64,000 bases of DNA from Alphaproteobacteria bacterium (GTDB lineage Bacteria; Pseudomonadota; Alphaproteobacteria; UBA828). The position numbers and the translations under genes are program-made. The stretch spans positions 160,001 to 224,000 of the forward strand of contig CAXXVO010000014.1 in NCBI GenBank assembly GCA_963422645.2, in the 5' to 3' direction. Below are positions 2,149 through 54,049 of this stretch, in pieces (within the stretch, counting starts at the first letter, position 1; the number at the start of each line of letters is the position of its first letter). The notes beneath the pieces were generated by a model. It searched no databases. It saw only the letters and a list, made by a program, of their open reading frames with translations, and was not told the origin of the DNA.

Positions 2149-3435
2149 ATGACGACACCCGTACCGCAGAACCGCGTCGCCCAGTGGATCGAGTACCGGC
2201 TGCCGATCTTCAGCTGGACCAATGCGCACCTCATCGACTATCCGGCGCCGCGCAACCTGAACTATTGGTGGAACTTCGGCTCCCTCGCTGGGATCATGCT
2301 GGTGGTGCAGATCATCACCGGCGTGGTGCTGGCGATGCACTACACGCCGCATGCCGATCACGCCTTCGATTCGGTCGAGCACATCATGCGCAACGTGGAG
2401 TGGGGCTGGCTCATGCGCTACCTCCACGCCAACGGCGCCTCGATGTTCTTCGCCGTGGTCTACATCCACCTCTTCCGTGGCCTCTACTACGGCTCCTACA
2501 AGGCGCCGCGCGAGATCCTGTGGTGGATGGGCGTCATCATCCTGCTGCTCATGATGGCGAGCGCCTTCATGGGCTACGTGCTGCCGTGGGGGCAGATGAG
2601 CTTCTGGGCGGCGACGGTGATCACGAACATGACCTCGGCGATCCCGTGGATCGGCGAGACGGTCGTCACCTGGCTGTGGGGCGGCTTCTCGGTCGATCAC
2701 CCCACGCTCGTCCGCTTCTACGCGCTGCACTACCTGCTGCCCTTCGTGCTCTTCGGTGTGGTCTTCATTCACCTGTGGGCGCTGCATCACCGCAAGTCGA
2801 ACAACCCGCTCGGCATCGATATCAAGAGCAAGAAGGACACCATCCCCTTCCACCCCTACTACACGGCCAAGGACTCGTTCGGGGTGGGCGTGATGATGTT
2901 CATCCTGCTGATCTTCACCTTCTACATGCCGAACGCGCTGGGCGAGGTGATCAACTACGAGAAGGCGAACCCGCTGCAGACGCCGGCGCATATCGTGCCG
3001 GAATGGTACTTCCTGCCCTTCTACGCGATCCTGCGCGCGATCCCCGACAAGCTCGGCGGCGTCGTGGCGATGGTCGCCTCGATCTTCATCCTCTTCATTC
3101 TGCCTTGGCTCGATACGTCCAAGGTGCGGAGCGCGCGCTTCCGCCCGATCTACAAGTGGGCGTTCTGGGTCTTCGTCGTGGATTGCATCGCGCTCGGCTG
3201 GGTCGGCGCCAACTCGCCCGAGGGCAACTTCATCTGGATCGGGCAGGTGACCACCGGCTACTACTTCGCACACTTCCTCATCATCGTGCCCCTCATCGGC
3301 AAATTCGAGCGGCCCACGCCGCTGCCGGAAAGCATTCATCAATCGGTGCTGAAGGGCGGGGGTGAGGACTCGACTGCGGCGGCGCCGGCGGATACTGCGG
3401 CAGCCGCACCGGCGGCGTCCGGGGAGAAGACGTGA
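2149..3435 (+). CDS. petB: Cytochrome b
   Basis: [25 protein letters not shown] and PEWY motifs; start re-set to ATG 2149. Confidence 0.97.
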
Positions 3436-4202
3436 TGCGCGGCGTCCTGCTGGCCGGGCTGATCGGCGTCTTCGCGCTCTTTGGCGGCAACGCAGCGCTT
3501 GCGGCCGGCGACGCGCCGGACATCCCCGGTCAGGACTGGAAGCACGAGGGCGTCTTCGGCACCTTTGACAGGGGCGAACTGCAGCGCGGCTTTCAGGTCT
3601 TCCAGGAAGTCTGCTCCGCGTGCCATTCGCTCCAGTACATCGCTTTCCGCAACCTGGTGGAGATCGGCTTCACCGAGGAGGAGGCGAAGGCGATCGCTGC
3701 GGACTACGAGGTCGAGGACGGGCCCGACGTAGAGGGCGAGATGTTCGACCGGCCGGCGCGGCTCTCCGACTACTGGCCCTCGCCCTTCGCCAACGACAAC
3801 GAGGCGCGGGCCTCCAACGGCGGCGCATTGCCGCCCGACCTCTCGCTGATCATCAAGGCGCGCGAGGGCGGGCCGGATTACATCTACGCGCTGATGACCG
3901 GCTACGAGGAAGAGGCGCCGGAAGGGATGGAGCTTGCCGACGGCATGAACTTCAACCACTTCTTCCCGGGCCAGCAGATCGCCATGGTGGAGCCTCTCTA
4001 CGACGAGGCGGTCGAGTACGTGGACGGCTCGCCCATGACCCTCGAGCAGCACGCGCGGGATGTGACCGCCTTCCTCTCCTGGACCGCGGAGCCGGAGCTG
4101 GAAGAGCGTAAGCAGACCGGCCTCAAGGTGCTAATCTTCGTCTTTGTGCTCACCGCAGTATTGTTCGTCATCTACAGGCGCGTCTGGGCCAGGCTGCACT
4201 AG
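3432..4202 (+). CDS. petC: Cytochrome c1
   Basis: [20 protein letters not shown]-terminal TM helix; follows petAB. Confidence 0.97.
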
Positions 4203-4280
4203 CGCATCGTCACACCCCCTCGTCGGGCCGGGCGTGACGGCGGGGCAAGCCGCCGGACCGAACGCGGAGGGGAGTGAACA

Positions 4281-5987
4281 ATGGCCCAACCCACAGGCTC
4301 GCAGCATACCGATCCCAAGAGCGATATCGATATCGCGCGGGCGGCCACTAAGCGCCCGGTTCTCGAACTCGCCCAGGACCGCCTCGGCATCGCGGGGGAG
4401 CATCTGGTCCCCTACGGTCACGACAAGGCGAAGATCACCCTCGACTACATCGGCTCGCTGCAGGACCGGCCCGACGGCAAGCTGATCCTGGTGACGGCGA
4501 TCACGCCGACACCGGCGGGCGAGGGCAAGACCACCACAACGGTCGGCCTCGGCGACGGCCTCAACCGGATCGGCAAGAAGGCCGTCATGGCCTTGCGGGA
4601 GCCGAGCCTCGGCCCCTGCTTCGGCGTCAAGGGCGGGGCGGCCGGCGGCGGCTATGCCCAGGTGGTGCCGATGGAGGACATCAACCTCCATTTCACCGGC
4701 GACTTCCACGCCATCGGCGCGGCCAACAACCTGCTCGCGGCAATGGTCGACAATCACATTTACTGGGGAAACAAGGCCGGCATCGATCCGCGCCGGGTGA
4801 GCTGGCGCCGTGTGGTCGACATGAACGACCGGGCGCTGCGTTCTGTGGTGTCATCGCTCGGCGGCGTGGCCAACGGCTTCCCGCGCGAGGACGGCTTTGA
4901 CATCACCGTCGCCTCCGAGGTGATGGCGATCTTCTGCCTCTCGCGCGATCTCGACGATCTGCGCGCCCGCCTCGGCAACATCGTGGTCGGGCTCACGCGC
5001 GAGCGCGAGCCGGTGCGCGCTAGCGCCGTGAACGCCGACGGCGCCATGACAGCACTGCTCAAGGACGCGCTCGCGCCCAATCTGGTGCAGACGCTGGAGA
5101 ACAACCCGGCCCTCATCCACGGCGGCCCCTTCGCCAACATCGCCCACGGCTGCAACTCGGTGATCGCGACCAGGGCCGCACTCAAGCTCGCGGACTACGT
5201 CGTGACCGAGGCCGGCTTCGGCGCCGATCTCGGAGCCGAGAAGTTCTTCGACATCAAGTGCCGCAAGGCCGGGTTGGCGCCGGACTGCGCGGTGATCGTG
5301 GCCACCATCCGCGCGCTCAAGATGCACGGCGGCGTCGCGCGGAGCGACCTCGGCACCGAGAACCTGGAGGCGCTGGCTACGGGCATGGAGAACCTGGCGC
5401 GGCACGTGCGCAACGTGCAGAGCTACGGCGTGCCGGCGGTGGTGGCGATCAACCGCTTCTCAGCCGATAGCGAGGCCGAGCGCGCGCTGGTGGCGGAGCA
5501 CTGCGCCGAGATGGGTGTCAACGCGGTGGAGTGCGATCACTGGGCCATGGGCGGCGCCGGCTGCGAGGCGCTGGCGCACGAGGTGGTGGGCACGATGGAG
5601 TCCAAGCCCTCGTCGTTCCAGCCACTCTATGCGGACGAGCTCACGCTCTGGGAGAAGATCGAGACCGTGGCCAAGCGGATCTACGGCGCCGACGGCATCA
5701 CGGCGGACGCGACCGTCAGCCGGCGGCTTGACGAGCTCCAGGCCGGCGGCTTCGGGCACTTCCCCGTGTGCATGGCGAAGACACAGTACAGCTTCTCGGC
5801 CGATGCGGGGCTGAAGAACGCGCCCAGCGGCTTCGAGGTGCCGATTCGCGAGGTGCGACTCTCGGGCGGCGCCGAGTTCGTGGTGGTGATCTGTGGTGCG
5901 ATCATGACCATGCCGGGCCTGCCGCGCGTGCCCGCCGCCGACAACATCGCCGTCGATGATATCGGCAACATTACAGGGTTGTTTTAG
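4281..5987 (+). CDS. fhs: Formate--tetrahydrofolate ligase
   Basis: [32 protein letters not shown] and TMPGLP motifs. Confidence 0.97.
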
Positions 5988-6871
5988 TTGGCAATTCGTC
6001 GCAGGAGACGATGACCTGACCCGAGCAAGAATTTCTGCCCGATTTCTGGGCCGCAGGCGCACAAAACAAAGTCATAATTGTCTGTCCGGCGAATCCGTGT
6101 TTCAAGCTCCCAAATTGACGGGAGCCCAACAATGATTCGCCCGCGCCTATACCGGTCTCTGTGTTTGCCGGTTCTTCGACTTTCGGGACACGTGTTCCGC
6201 GTCGCGGTTCCTCTCTGTCTCGTCATCCCGATTCTGGCCGCTTGCCATATATTTGTGGACGATGTGGAAGAGGAAGAGCAGGAGCCCTGCGTCCAAACTC
6301 ATGACCAGGGCTGCCTTTCCGAACCCGAGCTAGAAGCCTTGGTGGAGGAAATCGCAGGCGAATACGCGGAGCCGTCGAGCTTCCAGAACCAGTGGGGCCT
6401 GGCGGCGATCAATGCCGACCAGGCTTACGCGAACTTGGAGCTGGAATTCGGTCCCGACGTGGCACCCGGCGAAGGCGTTACCGTGGGCGTGCTGGATACG
6501 GGGATCGACAATGCCCATCCCCAGTTTCGGAACAAGACCGTCCCTGAGAGGTTTCTTGCGGGTGCGACCGGCGATGACGGAAGCGAACTTTCTCACGGCA
6601 CCGCGGTGGCAAGCATTATCGCCGGAGAGGATATTCCCGGTTTCCCGTACGACGCGCATGGCGTGGCCTGGGGTGCCGATCTCGTCGTCTTTGCCATTCC
6701 GCTGGGAGAAGCGCCCGAATTGTATGATCCGATCCAGATAAGCGAGTTGCCGGGAACCGCAGAGTACGTAACTGCCCAGGTCTGATTCTGCCGAGCACTC
6801 GGACGTGATGGATTGATGGTTCTGACCAGCCAGGGGTCAGGCTGAGCGCTTTCCCGGAGCAGCGCAGGATT

Positions 6872-8185
6872 TCAGAAGCGCAATACGGGGATCAGCTGGA
6901 TTGGATCGGGGTGCGCCAGGGTTTCGAGGACATTCCAGCGCTGTTTTCGAGCGGTGGCGATGACGGATCGCAGGTTTGCGAAGTCGCGGGCGCCTTGTAT
7001 CGAGCGGAAGCCGCCTGAGATTTTCTGGCGCAGCTTGCCCATTCGGAGGTCGCGGTCGTTCTTGTGGGCGAAGCGGGCGGCTCTGTTGGCACGGATGAGG
7101 AGCCGGTGCGTGCTCGTTGCCCAGTCTTCCTTCTCGATCTCGATGAGGGCTTGGAGCTCGCGCAGGTGATGGGCGTTGCAGGCCCCGTGGCGCACGCCCT
7201 CGAGAGCGAAGTAGGTGGCGTAGTCGTCATGGATGACGATGCCGTTGAGCTTCTCGTCGATGTGGCTGCGCCCGGTGGCGACGCGCAGGATGGTGAGCAA
7301 CGGGGTGCACAGCACATGGAGCCAATGGGTCCGGGCGGCGATGCGGATGCCGGTCTCGTCGAGGTGTTTGACTGGGGCTGCGGTGCGGATGATCTCCGCG
7401 AGGCGATCGAGGAAGCCCTCGAAGCGCCGGGCGGTGCGCCTTCCCATGGCGACGATGGTGGCTGTTGAGAGCTTGACCGCGAAGAGGTCGCTCATGACCT
7501 CGGCGACCCGCTTCTCGGGAATGAACTGAGCGTGCAGCAGGTAGGTCACCCACGCGGTGATGCGCGGCCCGTATTGGACCGGTGCGCTCACGCCGTTCGG
7601 GAAGACGGCTGTCGTCACGGTGCCGCAGGCAGCGCAGAGGCAACGATGGCCGCGATGTTCGGTGACCTCGAGGGGCTGCGGCTCGGGCACATCGAAGACC
7701 TGCCGGCAGACGGGGGCTCCGTGACGGTCAGCGTCCGACAGCGGCGCGCCGCAGCCCTCACAGGCGGACGGATCATGATCGACGACATGGTCGGGCGTCG
7801 CGGTCCGCTCCAGGGTAGTTCCCTTGTGGCCCGGCTGGCCGCCACTGGGCCTGTCGGACTTGCCGCGCTGGCTCCGGGTGCGCTTCTCCCGGTCACCGCT
7901 CTTCTTCTTCAGACCGTCGCTGGCCGGCGGCTTGGAGCTGGTGGTGCTGTCGAGCGCGGCGCTGCGCTCGAGTTCGGCGATCCGCTCGCGCAAGCGGGCG
8001 TTCTCCCGCTCCAGCGCGTCGTTCTCCTTGACCAGGGCCGCGCTCAGGCGCAGCAACCCCTGGCCCCATTCCCGAATGGCTTTGACGGCGGTCATTGCGA
8101 AGGATTGTGGGGTGAAAAGGTCCTGCAGGCACGCGAAGGCCTCGTCGTGGGCAGCGAGGTCCTCGTGCCAGCGCGACACTGTCAC
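6872..8185 (-). pseudogene. IS66 transposase (TnpC-type) with in-frame deletion of ~75 aa including the NNxAER segment
   Basis: Leucine zipper, SSKPPASD, GGQPGH, Cys zinc motifs, HLDETG, CNAHHLRE, QKISGGFRS; the region seen in 50486-52024 between RAARFA and RDxRM is missing. Confidence 0.85.
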
Positions 8186-8850
8186 GAACCCTCGTCGGCC
8201 TCGACGGCCATGATCGCGGCCAGCACCGCCAGGCGTTCGCCCGCCGGCATGGCCTCGTAGCGCCGGCCCCAGTTGGCCGCCTTGCGCTTGATGCACTGGC
8301 GCTCGGTGAAGTTCCGGCCGGCGAAGCTCGCCCAGTGCACCCGGTCAGGCGCGAAGTTGAACCACACGACCTCGGTCCGCACCTGGGCCTGGGTCGTCAC
8401 CTGCAGCGCCAGCCGGCGCCAGCCCGCCAGCAGCTCGTCATAGAGCGCAGACGGGTGGCCCGAGACCATCACCTGGCAGGGCAGACCCTTGAGCAGTTCG
8501 AGGAGCGCGACGTGGTCGGCCTCCTCGTACTCGAAGCGGTAGCGCTGCGACGAACGCCGGGTCGCGTGCAGATAGGGCGGATCGCTGTAGACCAGCTCCG
8601 GGCCCAGAAACGGGAACGAGGCCAGGAAGGAATGGGCGCAGCCGTGCACCAACTCCACCGGGTAGTCGCAGCCAAAGGCCTCAAGCGCCCGCTCGTCGCG
8701 GTCGATCCCGATCGAGCGCATGGCCGCAGGCTTGCGCTTCATCAGCGCCCCGCCCCCAAGATGGCTCTCGATATAGACAGAGTGCGGCGGCATCAGCGCA
8801 ATCAGCGCCTGGCTCAGACCGGTCGTCGCCTTCGACCCGAAATACCCCAC
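8182..8850 (-). CDS. Compact Dam-like (alpha-class) N6-adenine DNA methyltransferase
   Basis: YFGSK (motif X), ESHLGGGA (motif I), VYSDPPY (motif IV), VMVSG, RTEVVWFN. Confidence 0.9.
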   Translation of the reverse strand: MGYFGSKATTGLSQALIALMPPHSVYIESHLGGGALMKRKPAAMRSIGIDRDERALEAFGCDYPVELVHGCAHSFLASFPFLGPELVYSDPPYLHATRRSSQRYRFEYEEADHVALLELLKGLPCQVMVSGHPSALYDELLAGWRRLALQVTTQAQVRTEVVWFNFAPDRVHWASFAGRNFTERQCIKRKAANWGRRYEAMPAGERLAVLAAIMAVEADEGS

Positions 8851-8851
8851 C

Positions 8852-8907
8852 GGCTGCTCCTCTCATGCGAGAGTGCAACCCATAGGCGAGAGAACCTATA
8901 CAGTCAA
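8852..8907 (-). promoter_or_regulatory. Putative sigma70 promoter TTGACT-N17-TATGGG with ATAG-N10-CTAT palindrome and RBS-covering hairpin
   Basis: Same spacing and palindrome in the diverged copy B (49767-49823). Confidence 0.6.
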
Positions 8908-9337
8908 GCGGGGATCAACGACGCGCCGACGGCGAAACGGCACCGACGGCAAGCAACATCAGCACGCACTCAGAACTGGCGGCGGGGTACCTGGGTAGTT
9001 ACCAGAGTACTTTGCCGACAGACTCGACGAGATACTCGGTTGGCGGTTCGGCTCCCGAAGCGTCGATTTGCTGAACTTGAGCCTCGGCGTCTCGGGAATC
9101 ATCGAGAATTACAGTGAAGAGGTACTTCACGAACCGTTTGCGCGGATGATCGCCTCAATTCTTCAGGAAAGCTCCGAAGATCAGACTTCCTGACCTCGTG
9201 ATGCTGGCTGTTCTGGGCAGCGTGCCGGGAACTCCTTGAATTCTGATACATTTCGGTTGTTTCAGGCGGTTTTTCGCTGGGTGTCGCGCCCGAGGTCTGA
9301 TATTATAATTTGATACCAATTGCACGGGGTCTCAACC

Positions 9338-44046: not shown

Positions 44047-45670
44047 GTAACTGCCCAGGTCGTCTGATTTGTCATTTTGGGCCAGTGGATTGAGGCGTTT
44101 CTCGTTCGGAGTTGGTGGAAAGGGCTTGACGGGAATTTCGGGAAATGACTCAACAACGACATGAGCAATCCCGAGTCGCCGCGCGGCCCTTCGACGGGAG
44201 CAGCGCCCGAAACGCCCGCGCAGAAGATCGCCCGCCTGGAGGAGGAGAACGCCCGGCTTCGGGAGGAAAATGCCTGGCTTCGGCAGCAGAACGCGCGGCT
44301 GGAAGAGCAAGTCGCGCGTCTCGTCGAGCGCATCGAGGAGTTGGAGCGCCGTCTCGGCCTCAACAGCGGCAACAGCGGCAAGCCGCCTTCGAGCGATGGG
44401 CTGAGGAAGCCGAATTCGAAGCGGCGAACCCGAAGCCTGCGCGGCAAATCGGGCCGCAAGCCCGGTGGCCAGCCCGGCCACAAGGGCAAGACGCTGCGCC
44501 GCGCCGATCACCCGGATCGGGTGAAGGATCACGTCCCGGCTTCCTGCAAGGGATGCGGTTCGCCGCTTTCGGACGCGGCCAGGGCGGGAACGCCCGTCGC
44601 CCGCCAGGTGTTCGATCTGCCCGAGCCGAGCCCCCTGGAGGTGACCGAGCACCGGGCGCATGCCAAGTGCTGCGGGCATTGCGGGACGGTGACCCGGGCG
44701 GCGTTCCCCGACGGGGTGTCGGCGCCGGTGCAGTACGGCCCGCGCATTGCCGGGGTGGCGGTCTACCTTCAGCACGCTCACTTCCTGCCGGAGGATCGGC
44801 TGTCGCAGGTGATGGCCGAGCTCTTCGGCGCGCCGGTGACGGCTGCGACGTTGGCGACGATGAGCGAGAGGGCGGCCGAGCGGCTTGCGGGACGCGGCCT
44901 TGCACATACAGGACCTGGCGGCGGGCACGGCGCGGGTGAAACACATGGACGAGACCGGCTTGCGGATCGGCGGTCAGACGCAGTGGCTTCATGTGATCTG
45001 CACGCCGCTGCTGGCGGCGTACCGGGTCAGCGGCAAGCGCGGCGCCCTGCTCTCGGGTGTCTCCGGCATCGTCGTGCACGATCACTGGAAGCCGTACTTC
45101 GCGATGGAAGGGGTGGAGCACGGCCTGTGCAACGCCCATCACCTGCGGGAGTTGCAGGCGCTGGTGGACATCGAAGGGGAGGCTTGGGCCCGGCGGATGC
45201 AGCAGCTCCTGCGCCGAGCCAATCGCGCCGCCCGCATCGCGCTGGACAAGGATATCGCCGTTCCGGCGAGGCTTGTGGCGCTGATCGAGCGCCGATACGA
45301 CGAGATCATCGCCGATGCGCTGGCCTTTCACGAGAGCCAACCACCGTTCTCGCCTGGCAAGAGGAAGAAGCGCCGGAAGCGAAGGATCGGTCACAATCTG
45401 GCCTTGAGGCTGCGCGACCACAAATGCGCGGTGCTCCGGTTCCTGATCGACCTCGAGGTCGGGTTCACGAACAACGAGGCCGAGCGCGACCTTCGGATGA
45501 TGAAGCTGCGCCAGAAGATCTCCGGGGGCTTCCGGTCCGCGCAGGGGGCCGAGAACTTCGCCATCCTGCGCAGCGTCATCACCACCGCCAGAAAGCAGGG
45601 CTGGAATATCATCGAAGCCCTGACCAGCCCATCGGATCGGCTCATCGCCACCGTCAAGTGCGCGTAAGCT
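44047..45670 (+). mobile_element. IS66-family element without methyltransferase; right TIR lost
   Basis: TIR GTAACTGCCCAGGT; single transposase; cut just after its stop codon by the DDE IS. Confidence 0.88.
44161..45667 (+). pseudogene. IS66 transposase with frameshift at ~44885
   Basis: SGKPPSSD, GGQPGH and VQYGP in frame 1; HMDETG, CNAHHLRE, FTNNEAERDLR and QKISG in frame 2. Confidence 0.85.
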
Positions 45671-48028
45671 CAGACTTCCTGACCTCTGCTGATTTTAGGT
45701 GACACGAGCCGCGCGGATTCCGAGGCCCCGTCGATGTCGTAGACTATGCGCAGACGGGTGCCGGGGAAGACCGTTTCGGTGGCGTTCAGGTCGCTCAGAA
45801 CCGCATCGATCCAACGGTCGCAGGCGTCGTTTGCGAGGCCAAGAATGTGGACCCGCAGGAGGCCATTGCCAGGATCCGGCAGGATGTCGGCATCGGCGGT
45901 GAGCAGCGCTTGAAGCAGTTTCCGGGGATGGGGCTTGTGGCCCTGCGCCTGCATGACGGGAAGCATCATGCGGGTTTCGGCGCGGTAGGCGATCATCCGG
46001 ATGACGTCGAGGAGGAGGCGCTCGCGCGCGGGCAAGGCATCGAGCTGCTCGGCTTCGTCGAGGTCGCCGGCCCGGCAGTGCTTGGGCGTCTCCCTGCGGC
46101 TGGCCCTGACGATGTCGCGGACATCCTGGAGGTCCCTGACTTCCCTCCTGAGTTCCGCCGTCGGCTGCTTCTTCCGGGCCGTGTCGGCGATGCGGTTGCG
46201 CAGGCGGCCAAGCTGGCGGTCGAGGCGATGGATTGCCTTGTCATAGGCCCGCCGCAGCGGGTTGACGACCATGGCGGCGGGATCGAGAGGCTCGAGCTCG
46301 TGGGTCGGCAGGGCGTCGAGATTGAACTCGTCACGCATGTACTTGAAGAAGTTCTCCTGCGACCAGCGCGAGAACATGGCGCCCGCAACCTCAGCCATCG
46401 GCTTGTGCGGATCGGTGGTGATCAGCGGCACCTGACGGCCGTTGTCGAGCAGGCGGCGGATCTGGCGCACCCTGAAGCCGTTCGGCAACGTCACCGGCTT
46501 CTCAGCCAGCCGCATGGTGGCGCTGCCGTCCGCCGCCGGTCCGTGAATGGGAACGGTCATCGCGCCGAAGTCCTCGGCCGGCCAGTCCTCGCCCCTGAAG
46601 TTCTTGTGCCAGGTCAGGCAGGCGACGCCGCGCCTCGCCAGCCGGCGGAACAGATCCGGGCTCCAGCCCTCGCGGTCGAAGACCAGGGTGAGCGCCGGCT
46701 GGCCGGGATGCTCGGCGGTCAGGTCCGGCGCCCCGGCGCCAACGATCCCAAGCTCCTGCAGCGCCGGCACCACGTCGGCTTCGATGGCCGCGACCATCTT
46801 CGGGTCCAGCGGCTTGTGCAGACAGAGCAGCGGCTTGCCGCCCAGAGCGTTGATCCAGTAGCTGGCGCTCGCCGGCAGGCACAGCTTCTCGCGCGAGACG
46901 AAGTGCTTGGGCAAGCGCCCCTTGCGGCCGGAGTAGACCTTGACGTGCCCGTCGATGGCCAGCGTCGCCCAGAGCTCCGGCTCGTCGGCCTTGCCAGCGC
47001 CTGGCAAGGGCGAGCTGCCACGCCCGCACGCCGGCCTCGTCGTCGGCGATGAGAGCGATCTTGCGGCGCAGCGTCTTGACCTCGGGGCAGCGATCGAGGC
47101 CGAGAATGGCGCCCCATTCGCCCGGCGCCTGGTAGCGCAGGCTCTCGGGGTTGCGCACCCGCGCCAAGGTCATGAAGGCCAGGAAGAGCAGGATCGTAGG
47201 CAAGCCGTAATAGCCCTTCGGCAGCAATGGCAGGAGACCGGTCTCGGAGAGAAGACCTTCCTTCAGCAGGGCCGGCAGGGCGGCGAGCACGCCGCCGAAG
47301 CGGACACCGCGGGCGGCGGCGGCGAACTGCGGTTCGACCGGCCCCGCCTGTCCACAACTGGCCAGAACCCGAGCCGGAACATCGCAAGTCGCACGCCCCA
47401 TCGGCGCCTGCCGGTCCCGCCGATCGCGCGCGCTGCGATCCGTTTGCGGCTGCGCTTCCAGCCCCGGCGCCGTCTCCGGCCCCGGGGCACCGGTACTCTC
47501 TTCATCGACACGGCCTTCAGGAGCCGCACCCGCGTCAGGCGGCGCAGCCAGCGCTGAGCGTCCGGGCTCCCCATCCGCCTCCGTGTTGCCGATCAGTCCC
47601 TGACGGCGCCACTTGTTGACCGATGGCGCTGACACGCCGAGAACCCGGGCCGCCGCAGAGCCGCTCAGGCCCGATGCCAGCAACGCCGTCGCCTTCTCCG
47701 CCAACTCCGGAGTGAACACCGACGGCCCGCGACCGCGCCGGGGCTTCATGAACCCCGCTTCGCCCTCGGCCAGGTAGCGCCGTCGTGCGCGCTGCACCGT
47801 CGCGCGCGAGACAGCGAAAGCGTCAGCCAGTTCCTGCGGCGAGACCGCGCTGATCGCCGCGAGGCGGCCGATCCGCAAGAGCATGGCCGTGCGGTCATCG
47901 GCGGCGTGGCTGTCAAAGGGAATGAGGTTGGAAAAGTAGGTGAAGGTGTCGTCCGAGATCAGGACGGCGAAGCAGCTGTTGCCGATCGAGACCGCCTCTG
48001 GAGGGCACATTGGGAGGGTACTGGGCAT
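45670..48028 (-). CDS. DDE transposase with apparent frameshift at ~46990
   Basis: Same as copies 1 and 2. Confidence 0.8.
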
Positions 48029-48182
48029 GGTTGAGACCGTGCAATTGGTATCAAATTATAATATCAGACCTCGGGCGCGACACCCAGCGAAAAACCGCCT
48101 GAAACAACCGAAATGTATCAGAATTCAAGGAGTTCCCGGCACGCTGCCCAGAACAGCCAGCATCACGAGGTCAGGAAGTCTG
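45671..48182 (-). mobile_element. Unclassified DDE IS copy 3 (full length, no TSD)
   Basis: Both 16-bp TIRs; flanks AAGCT / AATCT differ. Confidence 0.92.
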
Positions 48183-48292
48183 AATCTATACAGTCAAGCG
48201 GGGATCAACGACGCGCCGACGGCGAAACGGCACCGACGGCAAGCAACATCAGCACGCACTCAGAACTGGCGGCGGGGTACCTGGGTAGTTAC
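48183..48292 (-). mobile_element. Left-end fragment of the MTase-carrying IS66 (copy A type)
   Basis: Matches 8893-9002 with one mismatch seen; ends ACCTGGGTAGTTAC. Confidence 0.9.
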
Positions 48293-48659: not shown

Positions 48660-49766
48660 AACGGGACAGGCGCCGCCCCTTAGCTGGGGGTGCCATCAGC
48701 CTCAAGAACGAAGTGGGCGGAAGCGTCTCAATCTTGCCCTGCGCTCCGTCGCAACCTCAGACCGTGTTCGCCCTATAATTCCGCACCTTGCGGAAATCAG
48801 TGACTCGGAAGGGCGCCGTTGAATTGCGCGCGGCTGACGGTGACACGTGACCCAAGAGTGAGGTGAGAGGCACTTAACACCCCGGACCATGGTGCGGTGC
48901 ACAGGGCGGCCGGCGTGGGGCAATGTCCGCGCCATGAACGCTCTCAACGCTCCCCCGCCTTCCCACCACACCCGTCGAGGCCGCCCGTGAGCGCGCTCGA
49001 CGGGTGGATCGACATCTGCCGCGCTGGAAACTGGCACGATATGGCCGGGCGCGACGTGCGCCTCGATGAAGACCGGCTGGACCGTATCATCGCAGCGCAG
49101 TCCGCAGCCGACCCCGCGCCGGTCGTGGTTGGTCACCCTGAGGAGAACGCGCCGGCGTATGGCTGGGTCGACAGCCTGCGCCGCGTCGGCGACCGTCTGC
49201 AGGCGAAGCTGCGCGACATCGCGCCGGCCTTCCGCGAGGCGGTCGAGGACGGCCGCTACGCTGGCCGCTCTATCGCCCTCCAGGGCGACACCCTGCGCCA
49301 TCTCGGATTTCTTGGCGGCCGCGCACCGGCGGTGCCGGGCCTCGCTCCGACCTGCTTCGCATCCGCGCCGGAGTCGGTGATCGCCTTCGCCGACAGCACC
49401 GCCGAGGCCCCGCAGATCTCATCCGACGCACAGCCCGACTCTCTCCGCGCCCTGGAGCCGAGAGGGGACGAAGACGGCAACAGCCTCGTCCCCCTCCGTG
49501 CCCCCCAGGGCCGGGGAGAGGCCGAAGAGGACGGCTGCCAAGCTACCCATGATGTGGCGGGCAAGGAGAGCCAGGCTGCGGAGCAGCCTGGAGCGCGCGA
49601 CCGAGCGCCGCGCCGAATGGCGCGAAGCCAAGTGAGCGGAGCGAACGCCCGGCGCTTGAGGGAAATGAACGATCAAGAAACGTAACTACCCAGGTACCCC
49701 AATCCTGAGTTGAGGACGGTGATTATGGCGGCGGCCGCGGCCTGGTTCTGCCACCGCGATTGGTTC

Positions 49767-49823
49767 TTGACCTCATAGAGTTGCGGGACTATGGACTGCT
49801 CTCTCGCGTGACGGGAGCGGTCC
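49767..49823 (+). promoter_or_regulatory. Putative sigma70 promoter TTGACC-N17-TATGGA with ATAG-N10-CTAT palindrome and RBS-covering hairpin
   Basis: Conserved geometry with copy A despite a divergent spacer. Confidence 0.6.
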
Positions 49824-50489
49824 ATGGGGTATTTCGGCTCGAAGGCGACAGCAGGTCTGTGCCAAGCGCTGATTGCGCTGATGCCGCCGCACTCCGTCTA
49901 CATCGAAAGCCACCTTGGGGGCGGGGCGCTGATGAAGCGCAAGCCGCCGGCCGTGCGTTCGATCGGCATCGACCGCGATGCGCAGGCGCTCGAGGCCTTC
50001 GTCTGCGACTACCCGGTCGATCTGGTTCACGGCTGTGCCCATGACTTCCTGGCCTCGTTCCCGTTCCTGGGCCCGGAGCTGGTTTACAGCGATCCGCCCT
50101 ATCTGCACGCGACCCGCCGCTCGGCGCAGCGCTACCGCTTCGAGTACGAGGAGGCCGGCCACGTCGCGCTTCTCGCGCTGCTCAAGGCTCTGCCCTGCCA
50201 GGTCATGATCTCGGGCCATCCGTCGGCGCTCTATGACGAGGTGCTGGCGGGATGGCGCCGGCTGGCGCTGCAGGTCACGACCCAGGGTCTGGTGCGAACC
50301 GAGGTCGTCTGGTTCAACTACGCCCCCGACCGGATGCATTGGGCCAGCCACGCAGGCCGGAACTTCACCGACCGCCAGCGCATCAAGCGCAAGGCAGCCA
50401 ACTGGGGCCGGCGCTACCAGGCCTTGCCGCCGGGCGAACGCCTCGCCGTGCTCGCCGCCATGATGGCCGTCGAGGCCGAAGACACGTGA
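49824..50489 (+). CDS. Compact Dam-like (alpha-class) N6-adenine DNA methyltransferase
   Basis: YFGSK, ESHLGGGA, VYSDPPY; close paralogue of 8182-8850. Confidence 0.9.
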   Translation: MGYFGSKATAGLCQALIALMPPHSVYIESHLGGGALMKRKPPAVRSIGIDRDAQALEAFVCDYPVDLVHGCAHDFLASFPFLGPELVYSDPPYLHATRRSAQRYRFEYEEAGHVALLALLKALPCQVMISGHPSALYDEVLAGWRRLALQVTTQGLVRTEVVWFNYAPDRMHWASHAGRNFTDRQRIKRKAANWGRRYQALPPGERLAVLAAMMAVEAEDT

Positions 50490-52024
50490 CGGTGTCGCAC
50501 TGGCACGAAGACCTCGCCGCCCGTAACGAGGCCTTCTGCTGCCTGAAGGAGCTTCTCGAGCCATCATCCCTCGCAACCACTGTCGTCGTTGCCGTCCGGG
50601 AATGGGGGCAGGGGCTGCTGCGATCAGCCACCGCGCTCGCCCGGGAAAATGCCGCACTCGAGCAGGAGAACGCGGCCCTGCGCGAGCGCATCGCCGAACT
50701 CGAGCGCAGCGCGGCCCTCAACAGCACCACAAGCAGCAAGCCCCCCGCCAGCGACGGGCTCAAGAAGAAAAGCGGAGCCCAGAGGCGCACCCAAAGCCAG
50801 CGCGGAAAGTCCGGCGGGCCCAGTGGCGGCCAGCCCGGCCACAAGGGAACCACCCTCGCGCGGAGCGACAGCCCGGACCGTGTCGTCGATCACCACCCCT
50901 CCACCTGTTCCGGCTGTGGCGTCGAGCTCTCGGACGCCGACCGGCAAGGCGCGCCCGCCTGTCGGCAGGTCTTCGACGTACCCGAGCCGCAGCCTCTCGA
51001 GGTCACCGAACACCGCGCCCATCGCTGCCTCTGCGGCGCATGCGGCACGCTGACACGAGCCGCCTTCCCGCCGGGCGTCACCGCCCCGGTCCAGTACGGC
51101 CCTCGCATCACCGCTTGGGTGAGTTACCTGCTGTACGCCCAGTTCGTGCCCGAGAAGCGTCTGGCCGAACTCATGAGCGACATCTTCGCGGTGTCCATCT
51201 CCACTGCCACGATCGCCGCCATGGGCCGGCGCACAGCGCAGCGCTTCGAGGGCTTCCTCGACCATGTCGCCGATCTGATCCGCACGCAGGCGCCGGTCAA
51301 GCACCTCGACGAGACCGGCCTGCGTATCGCCGCCCGTACCCGCTGGCTCCATGTGCTGTGCACCCCGTTGCTCACCGTCCTGCGCATCGGCGAGGGACGC
51401 GGCGATGTCGAAAAGAACCTGAAAGGCATCCTCGTCCACGACGACTTCGCCCCCTACTTCACCATCAAGGGCGTCCGCCACGGCGCCTGCAACGCACATC
51501 ACCTGCGCGAACTCCAGGCCCTGATCGACATCGAGAAGGAGGAATGGGCGGCGAGCATGCACCGCCTGCTTCAGCGCGCGCGCAGGGCCGCCCGCTTCGC
51601 CCGTGAGAAAGACCGTCAAGTCCCCGCCTCCCTGGTGGCCCGCATCTCAAGGGCATGGGACCGTATCCTCGAAGAAGCCATCGCCTTCCATGAGGCCCAA
51701 CCGCCGCTCCAGATCGCAAAGCGAGGGCGAAAGAAACGCCGCATCGGCCACAACCTCGCGCGCCGCCTTCAAAAGCATAAGGAGGGCTGCCTGCGCTTCC
51801 TCACCGACCTGCGCACGCCGTTCACGAATAACGAGGCGGAGCGTGACATCCGTATGAACAAAGTGCATGAGAAGATCTCAGGCGGCTTCCGCTCCCTGCA
51901 AGGCGCCTGCAACTTCGCCGGAATGCGCAGCGTCATCGTCACCGCTCGAAAGCAAGGCTGGAACATCCTGCAAATCCTGGCGCACCCGGAACCGATGCAG
52001 CTGATCCCTATACTGCGCTCCTGA
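50486..52024 (+). CDS. IS66 transposase (single-ORF, ISBst12-like), intact
   Basis: GTG overlapping the MTase TGA; SSKPPASD, HLDETG, VHDD, CNAHHLRE, FTNNEAERDIR. Confidence 0.92.
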   Translation: MTVSHWHEDLAARNEAFCCLKELLEPSSLATTVVVAVREWGQGLLRSATALARENAALEQENAALRERIAELERSAALNSTTSSKPPASDGLKKKSGAQRRTQSQRGKSGGPSGGQPGHKGTTLARSDSPDRVVDHHPSTCSGCGVELSDADRQGAPACRQVFDVPEPQPLEVTEHRAHRCLCGACGTLTRAAFPPGVTAPVQYGPRITAWVSYLLYAQFVPEKRLAELMSDIFAVSISTATIAAMGRRTAQRFEGFLDHVADLIRTQAPVKHLDETGLRIAARTRWLHVLCTPLLTVLRIGEGRGDVEKNLKGILVHDDFAPYFTIKGVRHGACNAHHLRELQALIDIEKEEWAASMHRLLQRARRAARFAREKDRQVPASLVARISRAWDRILEEAIAFHEAQPPLQIAKRGRKKRRIGHNLARRLQKHKEGCLRFLTDLRTPFTNNEAERDIRMNKVHEKISGGFRSLQGACNFAGMRSVIVTARKQGWNILQILAHPEPMQLIPILRS

Positions 52025-52707
52025 ACTTCTCCGGCTCATCCTGAGTATCGCTGTCCTCTCATCTTGTTCGCGACGCGGCGTTCATCATCCTCTCGCGCTC
52101 AAGAGAGTAGGCACCCCCGCGGCGTGGGGGCGTTGACGCAAAAGGAACTGGCTTGTTCCATAAGAGAGAGGGGGTACCTGGGCAGTTACCAAGAAACAGC
52201 GTTGGCGGAGCGGGAGGCGGTCCTGCTCGCCCGCGAGGCGGCGGCGACGGCCGACGACAGGCGCCGGGCGGCCGAGACGGCCATCGCGACCCATGTCGAA
52301 GCGGGTCGCGTCCTGCCCGGGGAGCGGGCGGCGCTGGTTGCGCTGCTCGCCGCGCTCGGCGAGGGCCAAGACAACGGCGACGAGGGCGCTGCAGGCGGGC
52401 ACGCCACCATCGCGTTTGCGTCGGCCTCGGGCGGCGAGGAGCGAATGCGGCCCGCCGCCATTCTGGAAAGATTCATCGAGGGCCTGCCCAGGCGCGTGGA
52501 TTACCGGACGCTCGCGGGCGGCCCGGTGCCGGGCGCGTCGGCGTTCGCGGGCAATGACGAGAATGCGGGCGAGGATAGCGAGCGAATCGCTGCCGAGGCC
52601 CGCGCGCTGATGACGGCGGAGGCGGAGAGGGGCGTGACCCTTACCCCCGCCGAGGCCGTCGACCGGGCGCGCGCCAAGCGCGGGCTCGGCATCGAAGGAG
52701 GAACGCA

Positions 52708-53064
52708 ATGAGTCATGTGTTGATGTGGCGGGCAGCGGACGCCGGCGGCGCCGTCTCCCCGCAGCGAATCGTCAAGTACGGCGACGCCGACGGCAAGGTG
52801 GTGCAATCCGCCGCGGCCGAGGACGCCCACATCGGGGTCTCCGGCCGGGCGTCCGCAGCCTTGGGCGGGCGTATTGAGATCGCCCGCACCGGCATCGCCG
52901 ACATCGAATACGGCGCCAACGTCGCGCGGGGCGCGCTGCTCACCGCCGATGGCGACGGCAAGGCGGTGACCGCTGCCGACGGCAACCGTGTCATCGGCAT
53001 CGCCGAGGTTTCCGGCGCCGCCGGCGACATCGGCCAAGTGCTGCTCGCCCCCGGCCTTCACTAA
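52708..53064 (+). CDS. Capsid cement/head decoration protein (DUF2190-like)
   Basis: Gly/Ala-rich 118 aa (GALLTADGDGKAV...IGIA...GAAGDI) between protease and capsid genes; RBS GGAGG. Confidence 0.8.
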   Translation: MSHVLMWRAADAGGAVSPQRIVKYGDADGKVVQSAAAEDAHIGVSGRASAALGGRIEIARTGIADIEYGANVARGALLTADGDGKAVTAADGNRVIGIAEVSGAAGDIGQVLLAPGLH

Positions 53065-53074
53065 GGGAAACACC

Positions 53075-54049
53075 ATGGATCTGCACACCGATCAACTCGC
53101 TTCCGGCCCCTACGAGGTCCAGACCCGGCTCACGCAGATCGCGCAGGCGGCGGTGCCGTCCGGCCTGATCGCCGACGATGTCTGCCCGCGCGTCCGCACC
53201 GGCTTCAAGTTCACCTACACCACGCTTGCCGAGGAGGACCTGCTCACCATTCCGGACGTGCGGGCTTCCCGCGCCGCGCGCCTCAATCAGGTCGAGTTCG
53301 GCGCGACGGACACCACCGCGAGCGTGGTCGATTACGGCCTCGAGGACCCGGTTCCCTCCCGGGATATCGAAGAAGCCCGGGCCCAGGAGGTCGCCTACGA
53401 CCCGCTGGAACAGGCCGCGATTTCCACGGCCGAGCTGGTGAAGCTCGCCCGCGAGCGGCGCGTGGCCGACCTGGTGACCACCGCGTCCAACTATGCCGCC
53501 AGCCACTCCACCACGCTCAACGGCAACGCGCAGTGGAGCCACGCCAGCTCCAATCCGCGCAAGGCGATTCTGGAGGCCCTCGACGTGCCGCTGGTCCGCC
53601 CCAACACGCTGGTGTTCGGGCAGAAGGTGTGGACCGCGCTGCGTCAGTACCCGAAGATCGTCGAAGCGGTGACCGCCACCGGCGCCGGCGACCAGGCCTC
53701 CGGCATCGTGGTGAAGGAGGCCGTGGCCGAGCTCTTCGAGGTCGACCGCGTGCTCGTCGGCATGGCCTGGTACCAGAGCGCCAAGCGCGGCCAGGAGGAC
53801 AGCTTCGCCCGCCTCTGGGGCAAGCACGCCTGTGCAATCCACGTGCGCCGCGACATGGCGTCGCCCCGCGACCGCATGCCGAAATTCTGCTGGACCGCCG
53901 ATGCTCTCGGCGGGCTGCAAGTCGGCACCTATGAAGAGCCGGCGCGCGGCGTCAATCGGGGCTCGATCGTCGTCAAGGTCAGCGAGTGCGTCAAAGAACT
54001 CGTGGCCTACAACCGCGCCGGCTACCTCTGGCGCAGCGCGGTGGCCTGA
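53075..54049 (+). CDS. Phage major capsid protein (HK97-fold, Mu-like siphophage type)
   Basis: 324 aa; LT.IA, IAD.V.PRV, L.RE.RVA.LV, QWS...SNP, PNTLV.G..VW..L..P, C-terminal AGYL...AVA; position after protease and cement. Confidence 0.82.
   Translation: MDLHTDQLASGPYEVQTRLTQIAQAAVPSGLIADDVCPRVRTGFKFTYTTLAEEDLLTIPDVRASRAARLNQVEFGATDTTASVVDYGLEDPVPSRDIEEARAQEVAYDPLEQAAISTAELVKLARERRVADLVTTASNYAASHSTTLNGNAQWSHASSNPRKAILEALDVPLVRPNTLVFGQKVWTALRQYPKIVEAVTATGAGDQASGIVVKEAVAELFEVDRVLVGMAWYQSAKRGQEDSFARLWGKHACAIHVRRDMASPRDRMPKFCWTADALGGLQVGTYEEPARGVNRGSIVVKVSECVKELVAYNRAGYLWRSAVA

Follow-up and report, generated by a model that had tools for sequence, protein, structure and literature searches.

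Organisation of the element

We analysed a window of 64,000 nucleotides (nt) from an alphaproteobacterial assembly of the UBA828 lineage (contig CAXXVO010000014.1, positions 160,001 to 224,000 of the forward strand). An intact insertion sequence (IS) of the IS66 family, ISBst12 type, occupies window positions 49682-52189 (2508 bp). It carries two genes on the plus strand. The upstream open reading frame, called ORF1 here (49824-50489, 221 residues), encodes a protein of the Upf31 family with a Dam-like fold and a basic two-helix C-terminus, and the downstream gene (50486-52024, 512 residues) encodes an IS66-family transposase. The GTG start codon of the transposase overlaps the ORF1 stop codon in the tetranucleotide GTGA. 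The left terminal inverted repeat (TIR), GTAACTACCCAGGTACCCC, lies on the plus strand at 49682-49700 and shares 18 of its 19 positions with the right TIR, which is read from the sequence on the minus strand at 52171-52189 (complement of GGGGTACCTGGGCAGTTAC). The 8-bp target-site duplication (TSD) CAAGAAAC, also read from the sequence, precedes the left end (49674-49681) and recurs identically after the right end (52190-52197). This arrangement bears out the initial annotation of the window, which had described a 2.5-kb unit with 19-bp TIRs, an 8-bp TSD and the two genes joined by GTGA.

The transposase matches PF03050 (E value of 4.4e-41), and its score against NF033517 (3.6e-86; 289.7 bits for a cut-off of 180) identifies it as an IS66-type DDE transposase. 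The match to DUF6444 (5.2e-10) is above cut-off, and that to zf-IS66 (6e-05; 23.8 bits) falls under the cut-off of 27.3 bits. IS66-family elements have TIRs that start with GTAA and duplicate 8 bp of their target. The element has the GTAA-start TIRs and the 8-bp TSD of the ISBst12 group. No tnpA-like or tnpB-like ORF is present between 49682 and 52189, and the backbone of the element was therefore assigned to the ISBst12 type. It departs from the single-ORF organisation of that group by the presence of a second conserved gene, ORF1.

ORF1 belongs to the Upf31 family and has a Dam-like fold

ORF1 is similar over its full length to Upf31 of plasmid pBP136 (45% identity over 222 residues, E value of 8e-68), which places it in the Upf31 family. 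Its relatives at 45-56% identity are plasmid genes labelled 'upf31.0 / DNA adenine methylase', including those of R751 and pBP136, and relatives under 60% identity are found in 196 PLSDB plasmid records, 134 of them conjugative. The family comprises 5660 clusters at 50% identity (E ≤ 1e-3), and the protein search with ORF1 returned 3707 clusters.

No Pfam family matches ORF1 at E < 0.01. The thresholds of the Dam family are missed with both PF02086 (E value of 0.16; 12.1 bits for a cut-off of 22) and TIGR00571 (1e-4; 22.1 bits for a cut-off of 114.85), and the phage DNA methyltransferase family phrog_56 is matched at 2e-17. As a single sequence ORF1 found no match in the PDB. A family profile was needed, and the one built from 49 sequences reaching down to 40% identity matched DpnM (1.5e-9) and also E. 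coli Dam, each in two pieces. This profile covers DpnM residues 16-80 and 184-266. The intervening recognition domain, about 100 residues long, has no counterpart, so that ORF1 lacks the target-recognition domain of D12-class (Dam) enzymes. The AlphaFold2 model of ORF1 has a confidence (pLDDT) of 91.7, and the best Foldseek matches of this model are again E. coli Dam and DpnM, with template-modelling (TM) scores of about 0.55. The S-adenosylmethionine (SAM) binding loop and the DPPY motif of the D12 class (residues 90-93, nt 50091-50102) are both present and align with those of DpnM. All 49 family members share residues G5, H23, G32, D90, P91, P92 and H113. In the SAM-binding site, E28, G32 and G34 are invariant or nearly so, and Y93 of the DPPY motif is nearly invariant. 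A predicted complex of two ORF1 copies scored 0.25 against a mark of 0.42, a result that is uninformative either way on dimerisation. ORF1 is thus a small Dam-fold protein of the Upf31 family, unlike routine Dam.

Upf31 has been studied in a preprint (10.1101/2024.02.05.579024). In the digests described there GATC methylation was not detected, and in methylase-free E. coli Upf31 gave no kinetic signal when read by SMRT (single-molecule, real-time) sequencing. Full-length Upf31 did repress its own promoter about 50-fold (0.09 versus 4.76 reporter units). Repression required the C-terminal ~50 residues, and the likely operator is an inverted repeat at the upf31 promoter. The conclusion given in that source is that Upf31 is probably no functional methylase 'under our experimental conditions' (10.1101/2024.02.05.579024).

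The initial annotation had taken ORF1 for an adenine methylase that may shield transposition intermediates from restriction. In that form the proposal is not supported: ORF1 fails the Dam cut-offs, lacks the recognition domain and is related to Upf31, for which both methylation tests were negative. Judged from the sequence, adenine methylation by ORF1 is nevertheless possible. The protein could be an active orphan N6-adenine methyltransferase whose target is rare or long; the adenines of the CATAG/CTATG repeat at its own promoter (see below) are one candidate. Such an enzyme might keep restriction away from the element or from host DNA, or tie transposase expression to replication by way of hemimethylation, and it would be compatible with autorepression. 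The DPP residues, G32 and the SAM site's acidic and glycine residues are invariant or nearly so and are also kept in Upf31. Their conservation argues in this direction, together with a fold nearest to Dam and DpnM and the phrog_56 match. Moreover, the SMRT test of Upf31, as described in the preprint, covered the E. coli genome and a vector, which perhaps offer few or no cognate sites, and in such a test a target as narrow as the operator itself would easily be missed. The same enzyme would have to do without the recognition domain of Dam and DpnM, and neither assay on its plasmid relative gave a signal. On balance we hold an active methylase to be possible but rather less than probable.

Copies in the host genome

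The genome containing the window (5.9 Mb, 23 contigs) holds 36 full-length copies of the element at ≥99.7% identity. Perfect 8-bp TSDs, in AT-rich targets, flank 22 of the 36, and several of the other 14 copies have flanks in common, the expected outcome of recombination between copies. With this many near-identical copies, most of them between perfect TSDs, the element is active and actively multiplying. A tblastn search with ORF1 gave 92 matches in the genome: 50 full-length at ≥99%, one at 97%, 24 at 85-88% (two contain a TAG in frame) and, for the rest, fragments.

A second ORF1-bearing type, here called B to distinguish it from the element described above (A), is represented in the window by a minus-strand copy at 6768-9002 with the same gene order, a TSD of its own (CAGAGTAC) and 83% DNA identity to element A. 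It aligns to positions 108-1934 and 2158-2352 of element A. Its ORF1 is intact (8182-8850). Its transposase has lost about 270 bp internally, a deletion that had escaped the initial annotation; the TSD and gene order had been correctly read there. Full-length type B copies with 513-residue transposases are present elsewhere in the genome. Between A and B the ORF1 proteins are 86-87% identical and the transposases 76% identical, close to the earlier estimates of ~87% for the former and ~75% for the transposase N-termini. A solo left end at 48182-48292 (minus strand), previously noticed as a third left end at 48183-48292, proved to be of type B: over the first 111 bp it agrees with copy B at 110 of 111 positions, and it is cut within the putative promoter/operator.

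The window also contains a sister IS66 element made up of a transposase only (44047-45672, plus strand; left end GTAACTGCCCAGG). It had been put forward as a methylase-free control. It is indeed free of ORF1, with the left end named above; this copy, however, is truncated in 3′, cut at 45672 by another insertion. The intact form is 1889 bp long and has GTAACTGCCCAGG TIRs at both ends and an 8-bp TSD (e.g. contig C9, positions 3091-4979). Eighty genome copies cover positions 1-1626 of this sister IS, which outnumbers either ORF1-bearing type. Because an ORF1-free IS reaches 80 copies in the same genome, ORF1 is unnecessary for spread. A methylase shield against restriction, in particular, is evidently dispensable for the sister IS, so that the proposed natural control speaks against a requirement for ORF1.

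Several other observations concern the surroundings of these elements. The IS66-family total in the genome, counting the sister IS and the two ORF1-bearing types, is well over 130 copies. Two minus-strand ORFs of 445 and 508 residues (45670-48028) abut the truncated IS66 at 45672 and are probably part of the element that cut it. Element A itself splits an ORF, read at 48897-49685 and 52064-52711 and resuming past the right end, with 52988-54049 beyond. Judged by the look of their translations, the genes around the element may form a prophage or a cluster resembling a gene-transfer agent.

ORF1 is joined to transposases of several families

The linkage of ORF1 to transposases was examined in two samples, with classes assigned by the analyst. 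The 80 loci of the genome sample come from 28 assemblies belonging to 8 phyla and have ORF1 at 69-95% identity. The metagenome sample also has 80 loci, 77 of which could be assessed (in three the contig ends too early). A transposase lies directly downstream of ORF1 at 78 of the 80 genome loci and at 72 of the 77 assessable metagenome loci. In the genome sample 61 loci have a close IS66 transposase, mostly with the GTGA overlap, and ten have a distant IS66 transposase of only 26-31% identity next to an ORF1 still ~70% identical. A further seven have a transposase of the IS701 family (NF049999, 1.4e-91), and these ORF1 carriers have TIRs of their own and CTNAG duplications. Two loci, L068 and L071, have only the first nine transposase codons, with ATG at the position of the usual overlap start. 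Overall, a 4-nt stop/start overlap is seen at about 60 of the 80 genome loci, and is GTGA in all but L092 (ATGA). The metagenome loci comprise 70 of the IS66 family, one of IS701 and one ISAs1-like (DDE_Tnp_1_assoc plus DDE_Tnp_1); four have unrelated downstream genes and no transposase. At the remaining locus (L158:1293-2645) ORF1 is followed by a 451-residue ORF of no known family, for which neither Pfam nor NCBIfam gave a match and which could be an unrecognised transposase.

The gene is abundant, with at least 576 confirmed relatives in the metagenome scan. Among 400 sampled genomes of the phylum, none had an ORF1 of the IS clade and two had full-length relatives at 44-47% identity. The element is therefore patchy rather than universal in its distribution, and is often multicopy where present.

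In a phylogenetic tree the IS-linked ORF1s form a single clade (support 99/97), separate from the plasmid forms. The tree left out L074 and L075, in which ORF1 is broken, and most unlabelled representatives of the 50% clusters, which have long branches. It requires at least three changes of transposase family (IS66, IS701 and ISAs1-like). Joint divergence of ORF1 and transposase was considered for the distant IS66 lineage and rejected: an ORF1 at ~70% beside a transposase at 26-31%, taken with the tree, fits swapping better.

The ratio of nonsynonymous to synonymous substitution rates (dN/dS) of ORF1 is 0.12-0.30, as expected under purifying selection, and ORF1 is conserved above its transposase in 44/44 pairs. 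One pair of 45, with ORF1 identity ≥97%, was left out of this table, and the set includes the transposases of L013 and L060, which are of odd length (489 and 590 residues) and perhaps broken. Downstream transposases at nearly all loci, purifying selection and, in close relatives, start/stop coupling uphold the earlier view of ORF1 as a stable part of the module.

These data also bear on a passenger role for ORF1, in which a plasmid gene, either selfish or of benefit to the host, would have been caught between the TIRs and would hitch-hike there without contributing to the element. The greater number of the sister IS, which has the same TIR core (80 copies versus 36 and ~24), would suit a passenger, as would the stand-alone ORF1 genes without a transposase at L131, L136, L159 and L141. 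A passenger would not be expected to keep a constant position, upstream on the same strand and either overlapping the transposase gene by 4 nt or set a short distance from it, to be captured by at least three transposase families, or to be better conserved than the transposase in every pair compared. We consider this explanation improbable.

Several loci deserve separate mention. At L014, L053 and L074 ORF1 is 81-93% and the transposase 71-79% identical to those of the window, so that such genes occur in assemblies labelled Tectimicrobiota, Dehalococcoidia and Binatia besides the Alphaproteobacteria. These identities suggest that transfer across phyla was recent; for L014, a contig of 3.3 kb, mis-binning is possible. 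Two IS701-type elements (L076:3446-6229 and L092:3584-6128) have an extra conserved ORF of about 95 residues, divergent from ORF1 and weakly similar to DUF3024 (8.9e-4), which is absent from the IS66-type ORF1 elements. Three loci of one metagenome (L131:424-1110, L136:3472-4160 and L159:651-1329) are ~87% identical in DNA and have the coding region alone in common. Their neighbours are ordinary genes (solute-binding proteins, a multihaem cytochrome), their clade is nested among IS-linked copies and L136 retains an operator-like repeat; they may be domesticated or stranded genes. L068 and L071 (L068:3867-4692 and L071:3865-4692), both from one genome, have exactly 826 bp in common, namely the IS66 left end, ORF1 and nine transposase codons, between differing flanks, which hints at a transposase-less derivative or at repeated truncation. 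Finally, L118 and L119 are interrupted by an ORF that, judged by eye, may be IS21 IstB-like.

A putative promoter with an embedded operator precedes ORF1

Alignment of 24 upstream regions revealed a putative promoter with an embedded operator at 49767-49795 (plus strand). A -35 box TTGACC (49767-49772) is followed by CATAG (49774-49778), ten nucleotides, CTATG (49789-49793) and a -10-like TATGGA (49790-49795). Across the 24 regions the pattern TTGAC-nn-CATAG-N10-CTATG upstream of ORF1 keeps TTGAC, ATAG and CTAT with little or no change, and the 10-nt spacer is variable. Among distinct upstream regions, CATAG-N10-CTATG was found in 29 of the 33 taken from genomes and in 51 of the 72 taken from metagenomes, for a background of 0.002 per 100 nt. 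The CATAG/CTATG repeat also stands before a plasmid homologue of 56% identity. The conserved repeat before ORF1 lies between the -35 and -10 boxes and differs in sequence from the Upf31 repeat. The function of 49767-49795 as promoter and operator is inferred.

Apart from the putative promoter of ORF1, none can be recognised upstream of the transposase. Regulation of ORF1 therefore necessarily affects transposase supply, which is a further difficulty for a passenger. The initial annotation had suggested that the methylase may regulate the ends of the element. Regulation is the reading we favour as well, but the site would be the promoter. Each element has a single copy of the CATAG/CTATG repeat, which is located at the promoter rather than at the ends.

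The same observation bears on a role of ORF1 as a required transposition cofactor acting at the element ends, in the manner of IstB for IS21 or of a TnpA/TnpB-like helper. The fixed position, predicted translational coupling and strong conservation of ORF1 would suit a stoichiometric partner of the transposase. Against this, the conserved repeat is not at the ends, a single ORF1 clade serves unrelated TIRs (IS66 GTAAC... versus IS701 CTCGACTTTGTACA...) and the sister IS66 elements transpose without ORF1. We regard a required cofactor as very improbable. More generally, any essential role of ORF1 in transposition, or a restriction-shield role, is unlikely because the sister IS has 80 copies and the ORF1 clade serves unrelated ends.

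Between promoter and gene, the 5′ leader of the window element contains a hairpin, GCTCTC...GGGAGC (49798-49818, plus strand), whose 3′ arm includes the GGAG ribosome-binding site. In 13 close relatives this hairpin has nine pairs and a weak folding energy of -2.1 kcal/mol (RNAalifold). The second lineage has a hairpin of other sequence, with ten pairs, -7.9 kcal/mol and three pairs with compensatory changes. A leader hairpin adjoining or covering the ribosome-binding site is thus weakly indicated in both main lineages.

A programmed frameshift fusing ORF1 to the transposase was also considered and rejected. The open frame upstream of the transposase is 78 codons long in copy A and 37 in copy B, and the gaps and other frames of the distant lineage disfavour a fusion further; we read the open frame as a GC-rich artefact.

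A proposed self-repressed cassette setting transposase dosage

The interpretation that we favour, with a probability of roughly 0.55, is that promoter, operator and ORF1 together form a cassette of promoter and regulator, portable and self-repressed, by which the dosage of transposase is set in this ISBst12-type IS. An ISBst12-type IS66 element would have taken up a Upf31-family gene as a fixed upstream gene, together with its own promoter bearing CATAG-N10-CTATG between the -35 and -10 boxes. ORF1 would bind the repeat and thereby repress the sole promoter feeding both itself and the transposase. Transposase output would be kept low and, via the start/stop overlap, linked to that of ORF1. Other copies in the cell would repress in trans, so that the family of copies would be subject to negative feedback, a built-in dosage brake. 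The cassette would be portable as a unit, as its junction with at least three transposase families suggests. DNA binding, repression and translational coupling by ORF1 are deduced here from the anatomy of the element and the Upf31 experiments.

Several observations weigh against this model. Repression by ORF1 is extrapolated from a plasmid protein of 45% identity, and the operator-like repeat of that protein, CAGCATCG, differs from CATAG/CTATG. The exact motif is missing from 21 of the 72 metagenome upstream regions. Its right half-site overlaps the -10 box, so that its conservation could in part be promoter conservation alone. A strict sigma-70 scan of 49600-52300 returned no promoter, as TATGGA breaks the rule for position 6. 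Tight coupling is not universal, the distant IS66 lineage having gaps of 3-131 bp between ORF1 and transposase. Finally, invariant DPP and SAM-binding residues are easier to explain if catalysis matters.

A more far-reaching reading is a self-contained epigenetic switch, in which ORF1 would both bind its operator and methylate the adenines over the -10 box, so that transposase would be made only from hemimethylated, post-replication DNA. We think such a switch doubtful. If it were true, the element would be coupled to replication in the manner of Dam whatever its host, Dam-bearing or not, a benefit large enough to explain independent capture by IS66, IS701 and ISAs1-like elements in at least eight phyla.

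The finding has a bearing beyond this element. Accessory IS genes have repeatedly proved important, and ORF1 is a very common and apparently undescribed one. The poorly understood Upf31 family gains a second and simpler setting for the study of its function, with one promoter and one downstream gene, and the 36 and ~24 copies of the two types in one 5.9-Mb genome provide a testable model of self-limitation by multicopy elements. Should ORF1 be a true methylase of narrow target, the element would be the first IS to carry epigenetic control of its own. Should it be no methylase, a methyltransferase fold would have been reused as a repressor, and the label 'DNA adenine methylase' may be mistaken for thousands of annotated genes.

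Comparison with known systems

The closest characterised relative of ORF1 is Upf31 of the IncP-1beta plasmids pBP136 and R751. The two proteins are alike in size, in their DPPY and SAM motifs and in their basic C-terminal helices, and an inverted repeat lies at the promoter of upf31 and at the putative promoter of ORF1. Upf31, however, is encoded by a plasmid backbone gene without a link to a transposase, whereas ORF1 is transposase-linked, and the proposed interaction of Upf31 with KorB has no counterpart in the IS.

The element resembles the ISBst12 group in its IS66 DDE transposase, the absence of tnpA and tnpB, TIRs starting with GTAAC/GTGAC and 8-bp duplications. In the published account of ISDge4, a member of this group, the TIRs are very similar, with a GTAAC start, and the duplications are also of 8 bp (PMC12898284). 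ISBst12-group elements have been described with a single ORF; the element in the window adds a conserved upstream gene and a putative promoter of its own. We found no description of an IS carrying an ORF1-type gene in a literature search that did not extend to ISfinder, TnPedia and REBASE or to the review of the IS66 family. The element is so common that an example may well have been catalogued without any comment on its function.

Dam and DpnM have in common with ORF1 the Rossmann methyltransferase fold, an N-terminal GxK, the ExxxGGG SAM loop and DPPY. They differ from it in possessing a recognition domain of ~100 residues, and ORF1 scores under the curated cut-offs of their families.

Transposition repressors encoded by the IS itself include IS1 InsA, IS911 OrfA and the Tn5 inhibitor, and in IS10 and IS50 the host Dam makes transposase expression dependent on replication through hemimethylation. 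In all of these a brake is placed on transposase supply that acts in trans between copies, which is the logic proposed here for ORF1. The regulators of IS1, IS911 and Tn5 are helix-turn-helix proteins or truncated transposases, and IS10 and IS50 make use of the Dam of the host. An IS with an accessory regulator is thus of a known kind. What would be new in ORF1, as a candidate regulator, is its methyltransferase fold and its movement among IS families as a cassette.

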